DNA of 64,000 nucleotides from an uncultured Gammaproteobacteria bacterium. Lineage in GTDB: Bacteria > Pseudomonadota > Gammaproteobacteria > HyVt-429. Where the stretch lies: positions 12,997 to 76,996 of the forward strand of contig CAMYOD010000039.1 of assembly GCA_947259975.1 (NCBI GenBank), given 5' to 3'. The position numbers were made by a program, and so were the translations under genes. Each line of letters starts with the position of its first letter. The first letter of the stretch is position 1. Below the pieces are notes generated by a model. The model made no database searches. It was not told the origin of the DNA and saw only the letters and a program-made list of their open reading frames with translations. Below are positions 1,428 through 64,000 of the stretch, one piece after another.

Positions 1428-3993
<2,566 letters not shown>

Positions 3994-4444: not shown

Positions 4445-5284
4445 TCAGGTGGGCGCGCGCGGGTCCTGCGCCTGCGCGCAAACGTACTGTGCGATGTCCG
4501 CTTCCGGCGTATCCAGACGCACCGCGGACAGGTGCCCGCCCCATACGCAACCCGTATCCAGCGCCATGATGTGCGGGTCGATGTGTAAACCCAATGTCGA
4601 CCAGTGGCCGAAGATGAGCCGGGTGTCGGCGCTGCGCCGATTTGTTACCTGAAACCACGGTCGCAACGGATCCGGCTGTGAGCCGGGGGCGCCCTTGTGT
4701 TTCAGATGCATGCGGCCGTCGGCGTCGCAATAGCGCAATCGTGTCATGGCATTAATGATGACCCGCAATCGCTCCCAGCCTCCCAAGTCGTCATGCCAAT
4801 GATCCGGTGTATCCCCATACATGTTTGCGAACAATTCACCGTAGCCATCTCCGCGCAACACACTCTCGACCTCCCGCGCCAGGCTCGCCGCGGTCGCAAA
4901 ATCCCATTGCGGTAGTAATCCGGCATGTACCATGGCGCAACCATGCGTTGCGTCATGTGTAAACAGCGGGCGATGGCGCAACCAGGCCAATAGCTCGTCG
5001 CGATCCGGCGCGGCGAGGATGTCTGTGAAGGTATCGCGGCGTTTCACGGGCTGCCGGCCGTCAGCGATCGCCAGGAGGTGCAGGTCATGGTTGCCCAAGA
5101 CCGTGGTTGCGCCGGCGCCGAGCCCGTATACGAAGCGTAAGACTTCGAGGGACGCCGGGCCGCGATTCACCAGATCCCCGGTGAACCAGATTTTGTCGCG
5201 GTCGGGATCGAAGCTCACTTGGTCGAGCAGTTTCAGCAGGGGCTCGTAGCAGCCCTGCACATCGCCGATTGCGAACAGGGCCAT
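4445..5284 (-). CDS. apaH: Bis(5'-nucleosyl)-tetraphosphatase, symmetrical (diadenosine tetraphosphatase)
   Basis: 279 aa, MALFAIGDVQGCYEPLLKLLDQVSFDPDRDKIWFTGDLVNRGPASLEVLRFV...GNHDLHLL, showing the metallophosphatase motifs of ApaH. Its start overlaps the pip stop by 1 nt (TGATG). Confidence 0.92.
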   Translation of the reverse strand: MALFAIGDVQGCYEPLLKLLDQVSFDPDRDKIWFTGDLVNRGPASLEVLRFVYGLGAGATTVLGNHDLHLLAIADGRQPVKRRDTFTDILAAPDRDELLAWLRHRPLFTHDATHGCAMVHAGLLPQWDFATAASLAREVESVLRGDGYGELFANMYGDTPDHWHDDLGGWERLRVIINAMTRLRYCDADGRMHLKHKGAPGSQPDPLRPWFQVTNRRSADTRLIFGHWSTLGLHIDPHIMALDTGCVWGGHLSAVRLDTPEADIAQYVCAQAQDPRAPT

Positions 5285-32397: not shown

Positions 32398-32900
32398 CCG
32401 CGTGACGGGGTGTCGGTGTGGCGCAGGATCTGATACAGCACCAGCACGACCAGGGCGACGAACACCAACAGGGTCTGTTCGGGGATGGTGAGCCCAAGGA
32501 AGCGCCACTGAATTTCCGCACACTCCCCCGAGCCGGTGAGAACCATCCTCAAGGTCTCGGCTATGGGGAATGACTCGAGCATGTAGGCGAGGTCGACGCC
32601 GCATTCGGGGACCTGGTCCGCGGGGAGATTCTGTAACCAGATGTGGCGGCTGGCCACGGAAATGCCGAGACTGGCGATAAAAAGATTAAGCACACCGTAG
32701 ACTCGCCGGCCGAAACGGCGCGGGTTATGCAGGGCGGCGACCAGAAAGATCGCGGCCATGCCGATGAGCAGGACCCGGTCAACGACGCACAACGGGCAGG
32801 CCTCGAGGCGGAGCACACCCTCGAGATACATGACCGCGAACACCAGGGCGCCGATGCAGATCAGCAGGCCGGCGAAGTTGATGATGCGCGGACTAGGCAA
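32394..32900 (-). CDS. dsbB: Disulfide bond formation protein B
   Basis: CPLCVVDR and …PECGVDLAY…GSGECAEIQW Cys pairs with 4 TM segments. Start assigned to the in-frame TTG at 32898-32900 with GAAGG 4 nt upstream, because the longer ORF (to 33125) has no ATG before TM1. Confidence 0.75.
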   Translation of the reverse strand: MPSPRIINFAGLLICIGALVFAVMYLEGVLRLEACPLCVVDRVLLIGMAAIFLVAALHNPRRFGRRVYGVLNLFIASLGISVASRHIWLQNLPADQVPECGVDLAYMLESFPIAETLRMVLTGSGECAEIQWRFLGLTIPEQTLLVFVALVVLVLYQILRHTDTPSRG

Positions 32901-33046
32901 CGGGCCTTCGCCCCCTGCGGCCGAGTCGTTTTTTCTGCGGCATATTCTTGTAAACCGAAGGTATCTCGAAGGATTCGAACCGCAGCTATGATTGCATAGA
33001 ACGGCTATGTCGGCCAGGTGGCACAGCGATGACGGGGCATTCGTGC

Positions 33047-33174
33047 TGCGCACCCCCAATCCCGCCCCGCTTAATCTCGCGGGACGTCCTGGTCCCGCTC
33101 GAATCGCGGTCTTTCGCTTCACCATCCCAGTGTCGCGAAAGACCGAACGACGCTTCGCGGGCCTGGGGTGCGCA
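33047..33174. repeat. Structured palindromic intergenic element, family 1, copy A
   Basis: Core ccccgcttaatctc-[hairpin gcgggac/gtcccgc]-tcgaatcgcgg-[hairpin ggtctttcgc…gcgaaagacc]-cgaacgacgc is shared with copies B and C. It is flanked by a perfect 10-bp inverted repeat tgcgcacccc/ggggtgcgca. Confidence 0.6.
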
Positions 33175-33246
33175 GATCATCGCGCAAGGCCGAACGATGT
33201 GCCGCGTGGCTGTCGGCCTCGCCAAGCACCATTCGTTCCGCCGTTG

Positions 33247-33375
33247 GCACCAGCTGGCCATGCGCCCAGCTTAATCTCACGGTACGTCCATGTACCGTTC
33301 GAATCGCGGCCCTGCGCTTTACCGTCCCAGTGTCGCGCAGGGCCGAACGACGCCGGGCGCATGGCCAGCTGGTGC
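33247..33375. repeat. Structured palindromic intergenic element, family 1, copy B
   Basis: Same core as copy A with compensatory stem changes (acggtac/gtaccgt and ggccctgcgc/gcgcagggcc). It is flanked by a perfect 21-bp inverted repeat gcaccagctggccatgcgccc. Confidence 0.6.
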
Positions 33376-33392
33376 TTGAGTGCTTATAAAGC

Positions 33393-33479
33393 AAAAACGG
33401 GGTCGGAGTGAATTTTCCATTCGCGGTACTCGACAAATATGCGAGCTTTCCTGGAAAACTTCACTCCGACCCCGTTTTT
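33393..33479. repeat. MITE-like palindromic element, family 2, copy 1 (27-bp terminal inverted repeats)
   Basis: aaaaacggggtcggagtgaattttcca …35-bp spacer… tggaaaacttcactccgaccccgttttt. It lies 22 bp downstream of the pilU stop. Confidence 0.6.
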
Positions 33480-33500
33480 GAACCAGGCTATTGTTCCGCT

Positions 33501-34709
33501 CTACATCCCGGCGCTGCGTTCGGCGTCGCCATCCCGCGGCCCAAAGCTGGCCTTGCCATCGGATTCGTCTTTGGGCGGTTCCTCTTCGGCCGGTTCGTCT
33601 TCGCCCGCCAGTTTGAGTTCACCGACGACGGCCTTGGGCGTGTCCTTTTTCTTTGCCGACAGGTTTACCTTGAGTTTCAGGTTGTTCGGTGAATCCGCAT
33701 TACGCAGGCCCTCCTCCAGGGTAATACGACCCTCGTTGCAAAGTTTGAGCAAGGCGTTGTCGAAGGTTTGCATGCCGAGGTTTTCGGATTTCTCCATCAC
33801 TTCCTTTACGCCGGCGACATCGCCGCGGCGGATCAAATCGCGCACCAGGGGCGTGCCGAGCAGCACCTCCACCGCCGCGGCGCGTTTGCCGTCGATCGAG
33901 GGGATCAGGCGCTGGGAGATAAACGCCTGCAGATTCAGGGAGAGATCGAGCAGCAACTGATTGCGCCGGTCCTCGGGAAAGAAATTGATAATACGATCCA
34001 GCGCCTGATTGGCGTTGTTGGCATGCAGGGTCGAGATGGCCAGATGGCCGGTCTCGGCGAAGGCGATGGCATGTTCCATGGTTTCGCGGTCGCGAATCTC
34101 GCCGATGAGAATCACGTCCGGCGCCTGGCGCAGGGTGTTCTTGAGGGCGTCCTCATAGGAGTCCGTGTCCATGCCCACCTCCCGTTGATTCACCACCGAC
34201 TTCTTGTGTTCGTGGACGAATTCGATGGGGTCCTCGATGGTAATGATATGTCCGGCGCTGTGACGATTACGGTAGTCGATCAACGACGCGAGTGAGGTGG
34301 ACTTGCCGGAACCGGTCGCGCCGACGAATAACACCAGGCCGCGCTTGATCATGATGACCTTGGACAAGATCGGCGGCAGGCCCAGGGCCGCCATGTCGGG
34401 TATCTCGGTCTTGATGTTGCGCACCACCATGGCGACTTCGTTACGCTGCTTGAAGATATTGACGCGAAACCGACCGACCCCGGGCTCGGAGACGGCCAGA
34501 TTCATTTCCGGCTTGCGGTCGAAGGCGGCGCACTGCTCCGCGTCCATGAGCTGGTAGGCGATGTCGCGCACCCGTCCGTTCGGCATAGCTTCGGCCTCGA
34601 GCGGCGTCATGGCGCCGTGAATCTTCACGCTGGCCGGTGCGCCGGTGGACAGATACAGGTCCGATGCGTCCTTGTGCACCATGAGTACGAGATAGTCCTT
34701 GAATTCCAT
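33501..34709 (-). CDS. pilU: Type IV pilus retraction ATPase PilU/PilT family
   Basis: Start MEFKDYLVLMVHKDASDLYLSTGAP, with GGAGG 9 nt upstream. Walker A GATGSGKST, plus …HLAISTLHANNANQALDRIINFF…, and a roughly 45-aa acidic C-terminal tail. The longer ORF (to 34952) runs through repeat copy 2. Confidence 0.88.
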   Translation of the reverse strand: MEFKDYLVLMVHKDASDLYLSTGAPASVKIHGAMTPLEAEAMPNGRVRDIAYQLMDAEQCAAFDRKPEMNLAVSEPGVGRFRVNIFKQRNEVAMVVRNIKTEIPDMAALGLPPILSKVIMIKRGLVLFVGATGSGKSTSLASLIDYRNRHSAGHIITIEDPIEFVHEHKKSVVNQREVGMDTDSYEDALKNTLRQAPDVILIGEIRDRETMEHAIAFAETGHLAISTLHANNANQALDRIINFFPEDRRNQLLLDLSLNLQAFISQRLIPSIDGKRAAAVEVLLGTPLVRDLIRRGDVAGVKEVMEKSENLGMQTFDNALLKLCNEGRITLEEGLRNADSPNNLKLKVNLSAKKKDTPKAVVGELKLAGEDEPAEEEPPKDESDGKASFGPRDGDAERSAGM

Positions 34710-34794
34710 GATGGCCTCCGCAGGAAAGAGAGTCGACTTAATAAGGTATGTCGGACCCGCGCCCGAATCCTGAAGCCGCGCCGATAGCCGGTCG

Positions 34795-34880
34795 AAAAAT
34801 GGAGTCGGAGTGAAGTTTTCCAACGAATCGGGATACTCGTTGGGAATCGCGAATGGAAAATTCACTCCGACCCCATTTTT
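34795..34880. repeat. MITE-like palindromic element, family 2, copy 2
   Basis: aaaaatggagtcggagtgaagttttcca …nested hairpin ccaacga/tcgttgg… tggaaaattcactccgaccccattttt. It ends 4 bp before the ptrB stop and sits about 85 bp upstream of the pilU start. Confidence 0.6.
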
Positions 34881-34884
34881 CCGC

Positions 34885-49240: not shown

Positions 49241-49732
49241 ATGAATGACCCCAGCCGCGACTTGATTCAGCTCGGCCTGCGCCGCGCCTGGCTGCTGTGG
49301 TCGGCCATGTTCGCCACCATCGTGGTGTTCGTGGTCATGGTGCAATTCTTCGCCAGTCAACTCGCCGTGGCCTCCGGCCCCGCCGGCCTCGGCGACCGGC
49401 TGACGTATGTGTTTTTCGGCATCGCCGCGCTGGCGTTTTTCGTCAGCATCATGATTCGCCGCCAGATGTTGCGGGGGTCGCCTTTGGCTGCCGGGCAGGC
49501 GGCGCCATCGACGCGGCCCGCTGCCGCCGCGGTCGGCCGATACCTGATGGCGGTGGTGGTGTCCAACGCGTTGGCGGAGAGCATCGCCGTGATCGCCATC
49601 GTGACCCTGATCCTGGGCTTCGACCGCGCCACGAGTTATACGCTGGTGTTCATCTCCGCCGCGGCGATGCTGATTCTGCGTCCGCGCCTCGCTGAGTTGG
49701 CGGCGTACGCGAATGCGTTACAGCGGCGCTAG
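49241..49732 (+). CDS. Hypothetical 4-TM membrane protein
   Basis: 163 aa; the hydrophobic ORF has no recognisable family. Confidence 0.5.
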   Translation: MNDPSRDLIQLGLRRAWLLWSAMFATIVVFVVMVQFFASQLAVASGPAGLGDRLTYVFFGIAALAFFVSIMIRRQMLRGSPLAAGQAAPSTRPAAAAVGRYLMAVVVSNALAESIAVIAIVTLILGFDRATSYTLVFISAAAMLILRPRLAELAAYANALQRR

Positions 49733-49745
49733 CTTGAGGTGATGG

Positions 49746-49880
49746 CTCGCGTTACCTGGGCGCCCGTAAAGCGTCGTCGGCCTTGCGCGACGCAGGGATA
49801 GCGAAAGCGGAAGGCCGCGATTCGAGCGCTACAGGGAGGTGGCGCGAGATTAAGCGGGGCGGGCGCCCAGGTAACGCGAG
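49746..49880. repeat. Structured palindromic intergenic element, family 1, copy C (inverted orientation)
   Basis: Its reverse complement aligns with copies A and B (…cgccccgcttaatctcgcgccacctccctgtagcgctcgaatcgcggccttccgc…gcgcaaggccgacgacgc…). It is flanked by its own perfect 21-bp inverted repeat ctcgcgttacctgggcgcccg / cgggcgcccaggtaacgcgag. Confidence 0.6.
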
Positions 49881-49968: not shown

Positions 49969-50526
49969 ATGTCATTCAAGTACTTCGCCTACGGTTCCAA
50001 TATGCATCTAAATCGCCTGCGCCAGCGCGTCGGCGAGGTCCGGGTGCGCGGTCGCGCGGTGTTGGACGGTTACCGGCTCGCTTTTCACAAGAAGGCGAAG
50101 GACGGTTCCGCGAAGTGCGATGTGCTGCGCACCGGTGAGTCGGTCCACCTCGTCCACGGTGTGATCTATGAGCTGGACCCGGCGCAAAAGGAGGTGCTGG
50201 ATCACTACGAAGGCCTGGGCCGCGGCTATGAAGCGCACCGGCTGCCGCTGCGAACCGACGGTGGGACCACGCAGGCCCTGGCCTACGTGGCCCATGCGGA
50301 CCATATCGACAGCGGCCTGGTGCCCTACAGCTGGTACAAGGCCTTCGTCAGCCACGGCGCCCGCGGTCACGGCCTGCCACGGGAATATATCGCCATGATC
50401 GAGGCGGTGCCCGCCACCGCCGACCCGGACCCGGCACGCCATGCCGCCAACCACCGTGTCCTGGTGGACCCGCAACCCCCGGCCCTGCCGAGCCCCCTGT
50501 CATCCGATTTCCTGCCGCGCCGTTAA
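49969..50526 (+). CDS. Gamma-glutamylcyclotransferase (AIG2/GGCT-like) family protein
   Basis: Start MSFKYFAYGSNMHLNRLRQRVGEVRVRG…, showing the YGSNM motif of the GGCT fold. An internal ATG was chosen; the upstream part of the long ORF covers repeat copy C. Confidence 0.8.
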   Translation: MSFKYFAYGSNMHLNRLRQRVGEVRVRGRAVLDGYRLAFHKKAKDGSAKCDVLRTGESVHLVHGVIYELDPAQKEVLDHYEGLGRGYEAHRLPLRTDGGTTQALAYVAHADHIDSGLVPYSWYKAFVSHGARGHGLPREYIAMIEAVPATADPDPARHAANHRVLVDPQPPALPSPLSSDFLPRR

Positions 50527-58312: not shown

Positions 58313-58500
58313 AGATCAACGGTTCCGGCCCAATAGCACCACAAACCGGCGGGGTAAGAAAAATTTCGCGTCGGCGACGAATTCGTGGGAACAAAATACC
58401 CACTGTCGCGGTCTAGTACTGTGAGGCGATAAGGATTTATCGTCTCCCCGCTCCTCCTCCCTGAGCGGGTGATTCCGGTACAAATCGGAATCACGATTAC

Positions 58501-58540
58501 GCCCCGGATAACCTCCCTTTCTTTATCCGGGGCATTTTTA
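58501..58540 (+). terminator. Rho-independent terminator downstream of polA
   Basis: GCCCCGGATAA-cctccctttct-TTATCCGGGGC followed by ATTTTTAT. A second palindrome GATTCCGgtacaaatCGGAATC lies at 58471-58492. Confidence 0.6.
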
Positions 58541-58560
58541 TGTCCGGGCGGCTGTCGGCT

Positions 58561-60027: not shown

Positions 60028-61014
60028 TCACTTCTGATCCTCGAGTACGTCGCCGAGCGGACTGCGCACGGCGTTACCACCGCGCTTCAGCACATGGGTG
60101 TAGACCTGGGTGGTGCGTATATCCTTGTGCCCCAATTGCTCCTGCACGGTGCGGATATCCATACCGCGCTCCAGCAGATGGGTGGCGAAGGAATGCCGCA
60201 GCGTGTGGCAGCTGGCGGGCTTGTCGATCCCGGCACGGCGTAACGCCTGTTTGATCGCCTTTTGTACCGAGCTTTCATCCATATGGTGCCGACGGGTCAC
60301 GCTGCTGCGCGGATCGACGCTGCGGCGCGCGCTGGGGAACACATATTGCCAGGCCCAGGAGACGCCGGCATTCGGGTACTTGCGTGCCAGCGCATGGGGC
60401 AGATACACCTCACCGTAGCCGTCGGCGAGATCCTTTTGATGCGTGTTCTTCACCGACTGCAGATGCCGCCGCAGTGGAATCGTGATTTCGTCGGGCAAGG
60501 TGACGACACGATCCTTGCCGCCTTTGCCATCGCGCACCAAGATCGCGCGGTGTTCGAAGTCGATATCCTTGACCCGCAGCCGCAGGCATTCCATCAAGCG
60601 CAGTCCGGAGCCGTAGAGCACACACGCAACGAGCCATTGCTTGCCGTCGAGACAGCGAAACAGACGCCGCACTTCCGCCTTCGACAACACGACCGGCAGG
60701 CGTTGCGAACGCTTCGCGCGGATCGCGTCTATGTCGCCCAGCGGCCGGTCAAGCACCGCCTTGTAAAGAAACACAAGCGCGTTCAGCGCCTGATTCTGTG
60801 TTGCCGCGGCGACCTGATCGTGCACCGCGAGGTGGCTCAGAAAGCGTTCCACCTCGGGTGCACCCATTTCCTCCGGGTGCCGCCGGTTGTGGAAACGTAT
60901 GAAGCGCCGAATCCAGTAAAGATAGGCCTGCTCGGTGCGGATACTGTAGTGGCGTAGACGAATGGCGGCGCGTACGCGCGCCAGAAAGGGCGAGGGCTTT
61001 CCATGCCGGTTCAT
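60028..61014 (-). CDS. intI: Integron integrase IntI (tyrosine recombinase)
   Basis: …[26 protein letters not shown]…[17 protein letters not shown]… plus the IntI-specific insertion [50 protein letters not shown]. Catalytic …[39 protein letters not shown] is present. Start taken at the [11 protein letters not shown]; the ORF-track start at 61056 is a TTG. Confidence 0.92.
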
Positions 61015-61131
61015 GATTCCGTTCCCTTGAATCCGTGGGAAATTTAAAGTAAACAAGTAGTATTAGGGTGTCAAACCCAATCGTTTCCGCGTTTGCGCGG
61101 AAGGCAGGACCGCCAACCACAGGAGGCCGGC

Positions 61132-61275
61132 ATGCATAAGCCGTTGTCTTTAGGGAAGAAGCAGACAAGGACACGCCAAAACCAGGGCACCAAACCTCAC
61201 CCTTCCCCGCGTGTTATACGGAATCTTTCCGTAGTACAACACGGAAACTTTCCGTCTACTCAATGTTATACGTAA
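61132..61275 (+). CDS. Candidate short attI-embedded ORF (47 aa) with strong SD, possibly coupling translation of the first cassette
   Basis: AGGAGG at 61121-61126, 5 nt before the ATG at 61132 (MHKPLSLGKKQTRTRQ…). Its stop TAA at 61273-61275 lies 5 nt before the ATG of the first cassette ORF, which has no SD of its own. Confidence 0.3.
   Translation: MHKPLSLGKKQTRTRQNQGTKPHPSPRVIRNLSVVQHGNFPSTQCYT
61205..61271 (+). other. attI-like recombination site
   Basis: Two GTTATAC core sites (61213-61219 and 61265-71) and two 13-bp direct repeats GGAAWCTTTCCGT (61220-32 and 61243-55), which are putative IntI binding sites. The cassette array begins after G/TT at 61265/61266. Confidence 0.55.
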
Positions 61276-61280
61276 TAAAA

Positions 61281-61724
61281 ATGAATACCACTTTTCTAAT
61301 TAAAGTAACGAGATTTCTCAGTGGTGTACTTCTTGCAATTCTATATGTAAAACTTACTACTGTTTTTCTTACCCAATATACAAAGTTAATGGGTAATTTA
61401 GTGAGTGATGCCGATAAAATATTATCCGTACTTGTTGCTGTAACACTATCATGTGTCATCATTTTTGCAGTGAATTACTTCATCATAAAAGCATCACCAG
61501 TTCTTTTAGGCATCTTTTCGATGGTGTGCGCATTTATATTTTTCTACATAATAAAACCACAAGGAGATTTTGCCTACACAGTCGCCTTGATATATAGCTC
61601 ATTTAGGCATCTGCATAGCACGGTAGCGTTTATCTTAATATTATCCACTCCCATAATTACTGGAATAATAATGAAAAATACGTATAACAAGGCGCTCCAG
61701 CCGACCGCTGAACGCGGCGGCTAA
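61281..61724 (+). CDS. Integron cassette 1 ORF: hypothetical small membrane protein
   Basis: AT-rich 147-aa hydrophobic ORF (MNTTFLIKVTRFLSGVLLAILYV…) whose C-terminal tail …LQPTAERGG is encoded within attC1. Confidence 0.55.
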   Translation: MNTTFLIKVTRFLSGVLLAILYVKLTTVFLTQYTKLMGNLVSDADKILSVLVAVTLSCVIIFAVNYFIIKASPVLLGIFSMVCAFIFFYIIKPQGDFAYTVALIYSSFRHLHSTVAFILILSTPIITGIIMKNTYNKALQPTAERGG

Positions 61725-61739
61725 GCTCATACGTTAGGC
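61681..61739 (+). other. attC site of cassette 1
   Basis: cgTATAACaa-ggcgctccagccgaccgc-tgaa-gcggcggctaag-ctcatac-GTTAGGC, with an imperfect internal palindrome AGCCGACCGC/GCGGCGGCT. Confidence 0.6.
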
Positions 61740-61769
61740 ATTCAATGAATCAAACAAAGGGGACAGTTA

Positions 61770-62474
61770 ATGGCACGTAAAAAGAAAGCTGCTGCTAAGA
61801 AATCAGCCAAATCAGAAGCAAGTAAACGTAGCTATATGTCACAAGCCGATGTTCCAAGCTCGTCCCTTGAACAGGCGCTTCGTATACCCCGTGCAATAGC
61901 AGAAAATTATGCTGGCGGTCCTGTCACACCTCTGCAACTTGCATCAGCTCTAAATATGGCTCCAACATCTGGACCATTTAGAAGTCTATGCGGTGCTTCA
62001 ATTGCTTATGGGCTTACTGAAGGTGGTTACAATGCTCAAGAAATAAAGCTAACTCCATTAGGTAAGCGAGTCGTAAAACCCTTAGAAGAAGGCGATGACA
62101 TTGTCGCAAAACGTGAAGCTGTCCTAAAGCCACGTGTAACGGGTGAATTTCTGAATAAGTATAATGGCTCACCCTTGCCAAGGCACGATATCGCAATGAA
62201 CGTTCTTGAAGAAATGAATGTACCATCTGATAAAACAGAGTCAGTTTACACCTTAATTCTTGACAGTGCCGAAGCAGTAGGCTTATTACGAGATATTAAA
62301 AACAAGCAGTATGTAGATCTTACAGGTGTTGATCAATCGGAAAATACTGAAAACGAAGGTGAGGAAGTCGATACGCAAGATACAGATGAAAGTGATAATG
62401 AAATTGAAACAACACAAACAAGTACAACACACAAATCAACAGCGCCAGCAGGTGCCATGTTGCAGATGAAATGA
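61770..62474 (+). CDS. Integron cassette 2 ORF A: hypothetical protein with Lys/Ala-rich N-terminus and acidic C-terminus
   Basis: Own SD (AAAGGGGA, 6 nt spacing). 234 aa, MARKKKAAAKKSAKSEASKR…GGPVTPLQLASALNMAPTSGPFRSLCGASIAYGLTEGGYNAQEIKLTPLGKRVV… followed by a DQSENTENEGEEVDTQDTDESDNEIETT acidic tail. Confidence 0.55.
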   Translation: MARKKKAAAKKSAKSEASKRSYMSQADVPSSSLEQALRIPRAIAENYAGGPVTPLQLASALNMAPTSGPFRSLCGASIAYGLTEGGYNAQEIKLTPLGKRVVKPLEEGDDIVAKREAVLKPRVTGEFLNKYNGSPLPRHDIAMNVLEEMNVPSDKTESVYTLILDSAEAVGLLRDIKNKQYVDLTGVDQSENTENEGEEVDTQDTDESDNEIETTQTSTTHKSTAPAGAMLQMK

Positions 62475-62737
62475 AATTGATAGATTCTGAAGCGAATGAA
62501 CACGTAATAATTAACCCAAATGTTTTGATCGAAATTGGCGCCGCAATGGCGCTTTATGGTCGAAGATTCATTTTACTCGTAAAGGAAGGCGTAGACTTGC
62601 CTTCAAATCTCCAGGGACTTTACGAAGTCCGTTACAAGGGTGAAACGCTGGACGGTGAAGCAACAATAAAATTATTGGAAGCAATCAACGATATTAAGAA
62701 TAATCCATTACCAGATCGATATAAAAGCGATGCCTAA
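62471..62737 (+). CDS. Integron cassette 2 ORF B: hypothetical 88-aa protein overlapping ORF A (ATGA)
   Basis: MKLIDSEANEHVIINPNVLIEIGAAMALYGRRFILLVKEGVDLPSNLQGLYEVRYKGE…. Its stop lies inside the R'' box of attC2. Confidence 0.5.
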   Translation: MKLIDSEANEHVIINPNVLIEIGAAMALYGRRFILLVKEGVDLPSNLQGLYEVRYKGETLDGEATIKLLEAINDIKNNPLPDRYKSDA

Positions 62738-62803
62738 CAATGCGCTCGTTCGGACGCAAACTCCGCTGCGCTTCGTTTGCGCCGCACAGCTTAAACGTTA
62801 GGT
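62732..62803 (+). other. attC site of cassette 2
   Basis: GCCTAACaatgcgctcgttcggacgcaaactccgctgcgcttcgtttgcgccgcacagcttaaacGTTAGGT. Confidence 0.65.
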
Positions 62804-62825
62804 GGTGTATGGCGGGGAAAAGGGC

Positions 62826-63314
62826 ATGACGCTCATCCGTGACAACAGTCTCATAGCTATGGCCGTCGCACTGACAGGTGGGGCTCTATTGCACTTTGGC
62901 GAAAAGATCCTTTTCATCTTGCTTTCGCCCTACACCATCGCCGTAGGTGACAGAATCTTCAATGATAAAGGGATGACGGAGCTGTGGGGGGTCACGTTCT
63001 TGTTTAATGTAGTGGCCTTCGCTATATCCGCATTAATCGTCTCGTTAGTGGTCGCTATGACCCTACGCGCTATTCTTGCTTACCGAGACATGTTTTACCC
63101 GCTTATCTCTGTCGTGCCGGTCGCACTCCTGGGGTATTGGTGGTTCCTCCATGATTCGGCAGGTGCTGTTGAGGGCATGCCATCCGAGCACATCGCCACG
63201 CTGCTGGCCCGGCCGATTGTGCTCATGGCTATCTTTCTATTTCTAGCGTGGCGATTTCGAAAAGAAACACCACCTAACAATTCACTCCAGCCGACCGGCT
63301 CCGCCGGCGGCTGA
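62826..63314 (+). CDS. Integron cassette 3 ORF: hypothetical membrane protein
   Basis: SD GGGGAAAAGGG precedes the ATG at 62826 (MTLIRDNSLIAMAVALTGGALLHF…). 162 aa with 4-5 TM segments; the tail …NNSLQPTGSAGG is encoded within attC3. Confidence 0.55.
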   Translation: MTLIRDNSLIAMAVALTGGALLHFGEKILFILLSPYTIAVGDRIFNDKGMTELWGVTFLFNVVAFAISALIVSLVVAMTLRAILAYRDMFYPLISVVPVALLGYWWFLHDSAGAVEGMPSEHIATLLARPIVLMAIFLFLAWRFRKETPPNNSLQPTGSAGG

Positions 63315-63329
63315 GTTCAACCGTTAGGC
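63272..63329 (+). other. attC site of cassette 3 (same attC family as cassette 1)
   Basis: ACCTAACaattcactccagccgaccggctccgccggcggctgagttcaacc-GTTAGGC. It shares ctccagccgacc…gccggcggctgag with attC1. Confidence 0.65.
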
Positions 63330-63371
63330 TCATTAAGCAAGGATTGTAAAATTATCAACCTCCTGCCAATT

Positions 63372-63968
63372 ATGGGCGTCCTCTTCGGAGTCGCCTTTTT
63401 AGGTGCCGCGACTGCCTGGTATCCTGGCGGATATCAATGGGGCGAACACACGATTTCCGCCCTATTTCAAGGTACAACACCGAGCGGAGTGGCGAATCCT
63501 GCAAGACCTATTGCTGTGATGGGCGTTCTCACAGCCATGAGCGGCATCGCGTTACTCTTCCACCTTGTATCGCGGTGGACTTCCCGATCATTTCAAAAGG
63601 GAGCAATCCAGATCGCCGGCATCGCTGCAACTGTGTTCGCGTCACTCACAGTTGTACTGCCGCATGATCTGATGGTCAGCCTAGCTCTCCTCTGCTTCGT
63701 GGTTGCCACCGTCGCTATCCTCAACGTACTCTATAATGAATGCGAGATAGTGCTATTTGCACTCGGCATCATGTTCCTAGCCCTGGAATTCAGTACAGCG
63801 GTTATGTACTTCGGCAACGTTTGGCTTCAATTCCTTCCAGTGGCGCAGAAGGCAGCATTGGTGCTCATCGGAATGTGGCTCTTCATAGTACTACACCGGC
63901 TAAGCACCCAAACAACTCGTTCGTCAATTCCAGAGAAGCGCGAAGATATTAAAGACTCGAAATATTGA
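63372..63968 (+). CDS. Integron cassette 4 ORF: hypothetical membrane protein
   Basis: 198-aa hydrophobic ORF (MGVLFGVAFLGAATAWYPGGYQWGEHTISALF…) followed by GCCTAAC at 63976. Confidence 0.55.
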   Translation: MGVLFGVAFLGAATAWYPGGYQWGEHTISALFQGTTPSGVANPARPIAVMGVLTAMSGIALLFHLVSRWTSRSFQKGAIQIAGIAATVFASLTVVLPHDLMVSLALLCFVVATVAILNVLYNECEIVLFALGIMFLALEFSTAVMYFGNVWLQFLPVAQKAALVLIGMWLFIVLHRLSTQTTRSSIPEKREDIKDSKY

Positions 63969-63975
63969 AAACAAA

Positions 63976-64000
63976 AGCCTAACAACTAAGTCAACTAGGA
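63976..64000 (+). other. attC site of cassette 4 (5' part; truncated by window end)
   Basis: GCCTAACaactaagtcaactagga…, an R''-box-like start. Confidence 0.35.

Follow-up and report, generated by a model that had tools for sequence, protein, structure and literature searches.

Three copies of a non-coding module of about 100 bases occupy intergenic spacers in a 64-kb stretch of DNA from an uncultured gammaproteobacterium (64,000 nucleotides, hereafter the window). We interpret the module, tentatively, as a rare, low-copy, non-autonomous, structure-dependent intergenic DNA repeat, selfish or formerly mobile, whose closing stems would have grown locally at the DNA level; this is the best explanation that we have, and it falls just short of being probable. 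On this favored reading the element is most likely not a dedicated RNA gene, and it is not a proven regulatory RNA. The family is new, as the original prediction held: it is absent from Rfam and does not display the defining features of REP/BIME repeats, MITEs, IS200/IS605-type elements, attC sites, or terminators. It nonetheless belongs to a known general kind, the small structured intergenic repeats, among which it is unusual in one respect: a conserved center is enclosed by palindromes that are private to each copy.

Architecture and genomic setting of the three copies

All three copies, termed A, B, and C, lie where the original prediction placed them, and their cores are 78-82% identical over 91-92 nt (Table 1). 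Each element measures 129-135 bp and contains no credible open reading frame. The core follows a fixed order: box 1 (GCTTAATCTC), a 20-nt hairpin 1, box 2 (TCGAATCG), a 39-40-nt hairpin 2, and box 3, (A)ACGACGC. On either side of the core is a short GC-rich inner stem, followed by an outer arm. Hairpin 1 has a 7-bp stem and a 6-nt loop, NTCCNN; hairpin 2 is built from an 11-bp lower stem, a TT(T)/TC internal loop, a conserved 3-bp apical stem (CAC/GTG, TAC/GTG, or CGC/GCG), and a 7-nt loop, NNTCCCN. The invariant parts are the three unpaired boxes and the two TCC-containing loops. No pseudoknot is apparent by inspection, as the loops pair neither with each other nor with the boxes.

Table 1. 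Coordinates in the window of copies A, B, and C, their parts, and the neighboring genes (CM, covariance model score).
Feature	Coordinates	Strand	Remarks
dsbB (DsbB by Pfam)	likely TTG start at 32899	-	
Copy A, whole element	33046-33175	+	CM 125 bits
Copy A outer arms	33046-33056 / 33165-33175		11 bp perfect; internal loop CAAT/CCT
Copy A native closing stem	33061-33065 / 33157-33161		5 bp, CCCGC/GCGGG
Copy A box 1	33069-33078		GCTTAATCTC
Copy A hairpin 1	33079-33098		
Copy A box 2	33099-33106		TCGAATCG
Copy A hairpin 2	33107-33145		
Copy A box 3	33146-33153		AACGACGC
Possible decayed fragment between A and B	33179-33222	+	nhmmer E = 0.77; weak, outside the confirmed family
Copy B, whole element	33247-33375	+	CM 120 bits
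Copy B outer arms	33247-33267 / 33355-33375		21 bp perfect; 24 with one mismatch
Copy B box 1	33269-33278		
Copy B hairpin 1	33279-33298		
Copy B box 2	33299-33306		
Copy B hairpin 2	33307-33345		
Copy B box 3	33346-33353		
pilU (PilT/PilU ATPase by Pfam)	33504-34709	-	
163-aa protein without assigned family	49241-49732	+	
Copy C, whole element	49746-49880	core orientation on -	CM 110 bits
Copy C outer arms	49746-49766 / 49860-49880		21 bp perfect; 24 with one mismatch
Copy C box 3	49771-49777		
Copy C hairpin 2	49778-49817		one C.C mismatch
Copy C box 2	49818-49825		
Copy C hairpin 1	49826-49845		one C.A/G.U position
Copy C box 1	49846-49855		
GGACT/AIG2 protein (Pfam)	ends at 50526	+	

The closing stems were described at first as perfect inverted repeats unique to each copy. 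They are indeed perfect, at 11, 21, and 21 bp in A, B, and C, and their outer ~11-15 bp are copy-specific; the inner 5-7 bp, however, are common property, reading GCGCCC(G)/(C)GGGCGC in B and C and CCCGC in A. The outer extension runs on continuously from this conserved inner stem in B and C, and is set off from it by the CAAT/CCT internal loop in A, giving closing helices of similar length (21, 21, and 11+5 bp). In a ranking of all inverted repeats of the window, the outer stem of C comes second and that of B third. The 58 outer-stem pairs are without exception Watson-Crick, with zero G.U. No outer-arm sequence occurs a second time anywhere in the window, similarity between arms and nearby flank is not significant, direct repeats do not flank A, B, or C, and the flanks of the copies share no homology. 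Since the arms are dissimilar between copies and the inner 5-7 bp are similar, the arms are not diverged homologues; each was acquired independently.

Pairing is maintained in both hairpins despite differing stem sequences, in agreement with the original prediction. In a four-sequence alignment of A, B, C, and a Woeseiaceae relative (see below), the 21 core pairs are 85.7% paired and 7 of them have changed on both sides, a number reached in 0 of 500 shuffles and set against 0-3 in slid-partner controls. RNAalifold on the complete elements yields 53 pairs, of which 16 carry double changes, mostly in the unrelated outer arms. RNA fold z-scores against shuffles on the two strands are -7.4 and -7.6 for A, -9.4 and -13.8 for B, and -8.7 and -11.0 for C. 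Unpaired core positions are 88-93% identical among A, B, and C versus 74-76% at paired positions; relative to the Woeseiaceae copy, with the searched boxes excluded, the values are 72-80% versus 52-57%. Single transitions inside the hairpins leave a G.U in two places, hairpin 1 of C and the apical stem of B; the G.U falls on opposite strands in the two cases, and thus indicates no strand preference. In hairpin 1 of C, the strand that was read at the time has a C.A mismatch where a G-U pair had been assigned, and the pair is G.U only on the opposite strand.

This combination of conserved structure and compensatory change had been taken as the signature of a selected structure. The structure and the changes stand, but selection is not established: with only four sequences the covariation is suggestive and not proof. 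Perfect stems and compensatory changes of several bases can also arise without selection, through replication template switching, which in addition corrects imperfect inverted repeats to perfect ones (PMC8794818, PMC5941160).

Copies A and B lie in tandem, offset by exactly 200 bp, in the ~600-bp spacer between pilU and dsbB. This placement had been predicted; both genes are on the minus strand, so A and B as written are antisense. Copy C is found between the gene for the 163-aa protein and the GGACT-family gene, both on the plus strand. All three copies are therefore placed between co-directional genes and are oriented alike with respect to them; at each, the mRNA-sense strand is the reverse complement of the core as first written. 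Start codons are 75-150 nt from the elements, which overlap no ribosome-binding site. A search for sigma-70 consensus promoters at the elements found none. Likewise, the outer stems are not followed by a T-run on either strand, and a scan for intrinsic terminators finds none at the elements; C, although placed between co-directional genes as described, is not a canonical terminator, for lack of a U-tract. Pfam scans of 40 window ORFs revealed no transposase and no RAYT (Y1 transposase) gene, and encountered housekeeping genes instead (dnaN, gyrB, TamAB, CorA, and others). The sole recombinase among these ORFs, an integron integrase, is some 10 kb away from C and 27 kb away from A and B.

The spacer that holds A and B has further features. 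The segment 33179-33222 includes TCGCGCAAGGCCGAACGA, which resembles the right arm of hairpin 2 together with box 3 (a 21-nt nhmmer match) and forms a small hairpin with TCGGCCTCGC at 33213-33222; judged by its sequence, this fragment may be a truncated fourth copy. Copy B seems to have an interruption in its left outer arm, at 33223-33246. There, CAAGCACCA pairs with TGGTGCTTG, which lies past the right arm; between CAAGCACCA and the main arm comes an insert of ~15 nt, TTCGTTCCGCCGTTG, containing the inverted box-3-like CGGAACGAA. A second repeat family stands at both sides of pilU (33392-33480 and 34794-34881), with one copy in the A/B spacer. It consists of 25-nt arms (AAAAACGGGGTCGGAGTGAA...) around a 38-39 nt spacer, has T-runs on both strands, and looks like a bidirectional terminator or a REPIN; spurious ORFs across it yield a recurring peptide, NFTPTPF. 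Upstream of dsbB, at a distance of 60 nt from copy A, the minus strand at ~32973-32983 reads GGTTCGAATCC, a canonical tRNA T-arm sequence. It resembles box 2 of copy B (GTTCGAATCG), a 9-mer match that is expected about 0.5 times by chance.

Elsewhere in the window, a 14-bp palindrome, GTTTCACGTGAAAC, occurs twice (1429-1442 and 1468-1481) between dnaN (232-1410) and gyrB (1447-3993), which have no recF between them. We take it to match the parS (ParB-binding) consensus, and the parS-like pair suggests that the window is origin-proximal. A chromosomal integron occupies 60028-64000: the integrase gene (60028-61056, minus strand; TIGR02249, 492 bits) is followed by a low-GC (0.50) cassette array on the plus strand with attC-like sites at ~61685-61739, 62735-62803, 63275-63329, and from ~63975, whose R'' is GCCTAAC and R' GTTAGGC. 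Downstream of polA, 58445-58541 (plus strand) matches the Rfam family anti-hemB / Burkholderia RNA 7 (RF02837, 62 bits, E = 4e-12), here in a gammaproteobacterium and not in Burkholderia.

A relative in Woeseiaceae

Searches for additional members returned very little. A fourth copy in the 64 kb was not found by regular expression, nhmmer, or covariance model (R1). Rfam 15, at gathering and at permissive thresholds, gave no relevant family, the best scores being 7-16 bits (E above 1) for unrelated eukaryotic families. ARAGORN detected no tRNA or tmRNA in the elements, despite the T-loop-like TCGAATC in box 2, and none at GGTTCGAATCC. Plasmid and phage collections gave no blastn match, and a viral scan produced 2 matches, both attributed to chance. 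A two-box signature, CTTAATCTC-N16-24-TCGAATCGC, was run on 185,579 species-representative genomes; it requires 18 exact bases and so misses diverged members. It retrieved 71 loci and no true copy: the four most plausible (L040, L062, L020, and L029) proved on inspection to be chance matches, and none of the rest was significant with the core HMM. A stricter signature in JGI metagenomes retrieved four loci, one of which, L072, is a true relative on a Woeseiaceae contig. The original prediction was to lose its force if no further copies existed across the genome; the sequence searched came close to that outcome, with this one relative found.

The L072 copy lies 40 bp downstream of the stop codon of rplQ and runs in the same direction as that gene. 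Its orientation to the flanking genes is opposite to that of A, B, and C, and orientation at the RNA level is thus not conserved. It keeps boxes 1-3 and both loops, of which box 3 and the loops lie outside the search pattern. The paired parts are less intact: two mismatches sit in the middle of hairpin 1, hairpin 2 has a degenerate lower stem, a closing stem or outer palindrome is absent, and the sequence folds no better than shuffles (z -0.5 and -1.9). The element is identical in the 8 same-species contigs that span it; a ninth (L088) ends within it. Contigs L080-L088 of this species differ by a 19-bp indel next to the element on its upstream side (L072 positions 4740-4770), which removes TCCCCATCCGGGGACAATG, a small hairpin, from 4 of the 9 contigs. 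The element itself has zero SNPs, and the next 150 bp have four.

Same-gene-order Woeseiaceae loci (L101 and L103-L107) lack the element and have a canonical terminator, AAAAAAACCGGGCTTTGTCCGGTTTTTTT, in the region; two other Woeseiaceae rplQ loci differ in synteny. In the alignment, the extra DNA is located downstream of the rplQ stop codon and upstream of the common AGCCCGAA motif, where homology resumes. The insertion point is upstream of the terminator position, not inside its hairpin, and no palindrome flanks it. A candidate terminator-arm remnant (AACCGGG) beside the element was rejected on this alignment, and a covariance-model match inside rplR of L101 (19 bits) lacks the boxes and was set down to chance. 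Presence in one sub-lineage and absence from syntenic relatives imply gain by insertion. At the corresponding position, a sister species (L17 98% identical) has a stretch of ~230 bp whose sequence differs for the most part, with fragments resembling box 1, box 2, and hairpin 2 and a 21-bp deletion polymorphism; nhmmer does not detect this version (best E = 5.7), which looks by eye like a decayed copy. From these comparisons, the Woeseiaceae element appears to behave as an inserted, gene-less DNA module that later erodes. The earlier judgment that the family does not look like a transposon relic is weakened accordingly: the Woeseiaceae copy is an insertion, absent from syntenic relatives and decayed-looking in the sister species.

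Origin of the module and of its closing stems

The DNA-repeat explanation takes as its unit the ~100-bp core, a Y-shaped fold made of a 5-7 bp GC-rich native closing stem and two hairpins, which would fold as single-stranded DNA, and as RNA when transcribed. An enzyme acting in trans would move or copy the element by reading the conserved unpaired boxes and loops on the folded strand. The stems would need only to pair, and compensated stem changes would therefore accumulate in lineages of active copies. In this genome, replication template switching would have extended the native closing stem outwards: the nascent strand would fold back on the closing stem and copy its own flank, leaving a contiguous, perfect, all-Watson-Crick palindrome unique to each copy. 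As a side effect, very stable hairpins would form in two spacers, the one between pilU and dsbB and the one that precedes the GGACT-family gene.

Several observations agree with this scheme. The module occurs at unrelated intergenic sites in one genome and again in a second, distantly related lineage; the A/B spacer is repeat-rich, holding the second repeat family and the possible fragment; and the elements have neither promoter nor terminator consensus, nor an Rfam match. The purely Watson-Crick composition of the 58 outer pairs, the direct run-on in B and C, and the absence of strand preference point to a process at the DNA level. We favor fold-back template switching primed by the native stem as the putative source of the outer stems, since it would yield contiguous, perfect, and unique extensions. 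Empty-site comparisons were sought at both loci. The host is a lone lineage: its PilU is a singleton cluster whose next homologue is 82% identical, with named matches in uncultured Gammaproteobacteria and Thiohalobacter and not, as the anti-hemB match might have led one to expect, in Burkholderia. PilU relatives at 80-82% identity are without the dsbB neighborhood, and the 163-aa protein upstream of C has no homologue besides itself.

Other observations count against a DNA repeat. The 40 window ORFs include no transposase or recombinase partner, the terminal inverted repeats share only 5-7 bp, direct target duplications and a common flanking tetranucleotide are lacking, and the copy number is very low. 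The similar lengths of the closing stems also count against template switching, since random switching does not predict them; insertion at the apex of a palindrome, considered below, accommodates them no better. Finally, the three intact copies share one gene-relative orientation and have GGA in both loops, features compatible with a role as RNA.

That role, which we consider unlikely, would be that of a cis-acting structured RNA on the gene-sense strand, situated between pilU and dsbB and also in the 5' region of the GGACT-family gene. As read from the sequence, the closing ~21-bp helix would serve as an RNase III-type processing or stability signal, and the GGA loops would bind a CsrA/RsmA-type protein. 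The sense strand, to which all three intact copies conform, folds 10-16 kcal/mol better (-81.8, -99.2, and -94.9 versus -72.3, -88.9, and -79.1 kcal/mol on the other strand), and on it the boxes form short helices, GUCG/CGAU and UC/GA, with tandem G.A. The sense loops read CAGGAC, AUGGAC, and AGGGAG in one hairpin and UGGGAUG, UGGGACG, and AGGGAUA in the other. The predicted loops would thus present GGA at positions 3-5, in both loops of all four copies including that of Woeseiaceae and about 45 nt apart, an arrangement that at the sequence level resembles CsrA/RsmA sites, where GGA motifs stand in the loops of short hairpins and a single dimer can reach two of them. A perfect helix of ~21 bp has the size of an RNase III substrate, and the closing helices are alike in length; conservation is higher at unpaired positions than in stems, and 7 of the core pairs show covariation. 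Against these points, the Woeseiaceae copy is inverted and points into the rplQ 3' end, its stems are not maintained, and the sister-species version looks decayed. Zero G.U among 58 outer pairs is also unfavorable to an RNA, as are start codons that lie 75-150 nt away with no ribosome-binding site overlap and the absence of promoter signal, terminator signal, and Rfam match.

The private arms could instead be older host sequence, if a miniature element had inserted at the apex of pre-existing terminator- or REP-like palindromes; we regard this as rather less credible still. Precedents exist: the insertion sequences IS1397 and ISKpn1 go into REP loops, and group IIC introns into terminator stems. 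Outer arms unique to each copy would follow directly, the CAAT/CCT that sets off the 11-bp stem of copy A could be a split 7-nt host loop, all copies are 3' of genes, where hairpins are common, and the Woeseiaceae element is in the rplQ terminator region. The window, however, has few other long palindromes, namely the parS-like pair and the second repeat family. Nothing of a loop is left between arm and native stem in B and C, which would require insertion at the exact center of a loop-less 30-bp palindrome, and no T-runs follow the arms. The single empty-site comparison, in Woeseiaceae, puts the insertion between the stop codon and AGCCCGAA, with no flanking palindrome.

It is improbable that neither mobility nor function is involved, A, B, and C being old local duplicates whose hairpins are kept paired by template-switch correction and the Woeseiaceae likeness a relic of unrelated shared ancestral sequence. 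All three copies do fall within 17 kb, the A-B spacing is exactly 200 bp, and the exact signature found no other copy in the window or in 185,579 species genomes. Yet the flanks are without homology, so the copies are not segmental duplicates; the boxes are invariant across two distant lineages with stems only 52-57% identical; and presence or absence at syntenic Woeseiaceae loci indicates insertion. Least probable is a new mobile DNA that integrates as a folded single strand and leaves an inverted target duplication of ~15 bp. The similar stem lengths (21, 21, and 11+5 bp) in three unrelated contexts would then be a fixed-stagger footprint, comparable to the target-site duplications of ordinary transposons.

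If the DNA-repeat explanation is true, the family is a rare and unusual addition to bacterial intergenic repeats, with conserved unpaired boxes and a private closing palindrome per copy, and shows how a palindrome can grow in nature when template switching is nucleated by a structured site. It also carries a caution for RNA-motif discovery: compensated stems and invariant loops mimic a selected RNA and can arise in a DNA element. If the module acts as RNA, it adds a new module for protein binding or processing to the sediment Gammaproteobacteria, a poorly studied group. In either case the practical impact is small at present, since very few examples exist in public data.

Comparison with known systems

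The REP/BIME/REPIN elements, associated with RAYT transposases, are the first point of comparison. They too are extragenic and GC-rich, form stable hairpins, cluster in tandem after genes, and lack classical transposon ends; they are thought to be recognized as folded single strands. Their stems and 5' GT(A/G)G (GTAG) head are conserved, whereas here the stems vary, the unpaired boxes are conserved, and there is no GTAG head. They number tens to hundreds per genome; the present count is 3 copies in 64 kb.

MITEs, including the ERIC/IRU and Correia types, are similarly non-coding and intergenic, measure ~100-130 bp, and can fold as a whole into a long hairpin. Their presence/absence pattern between related genomes is seen here as well: the element is present in the L072 species and absent from L101 and L103-L107. 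Unlike this family, MITEs have terminal inverted repeats that are identical across copies, and direct target duplications; here, repeats of 11-21 bp are copy-specific, 5-7 bp are shared, and no duplication occurs. Palindrome-associated elements derived from IS200/IS605 come close in having subterminal hairpins and no TIR/TSD, but they use a fixed tetra- or pentanucleotide target, and the left flanks in this family (CAAT, CCAT, CTGG, and CTCA) have nothing in common.

Some mobile elements target hairpins: IS1397 and ISKpn1 in REP loops, the IS1111-attC group, and group IIC introns at terminators. Insertion of this kind would give a conserved insert between host palindrome arms, as in A, B, and C. 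These elements are at least 0.6-1.5 kb long, encode their own enzyme, and target palindromes that form repeat families, whereas the insert here is 100 bp and the arms are unique. Integron attC sites share recognition by structure over sequence and single-strand folding, their 57-141 bp range fits, and an integrase and attC array are present in the window. Their conserved outer core sites (RYYYAAC/GTTRRRY) and variable center are nevertheless the inverse of this element, and A, B, and C have no core sites and lie 10-27 kb from the integron, among housekeeping genes; the attC sites of the window itself bear no relation to the element.

Template switching differs from all of these in being a mutational mechanism and not an element family; it leaves the invariant boxes, the multiple copies, and the similar stem lengths unexplained. 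What the hairpins that it generates have in common with copies A, B, and C is the perfect Watson-Crick stem made in one step, together with compensated changes of several bases at once (PMC8794818, PMC5941160).
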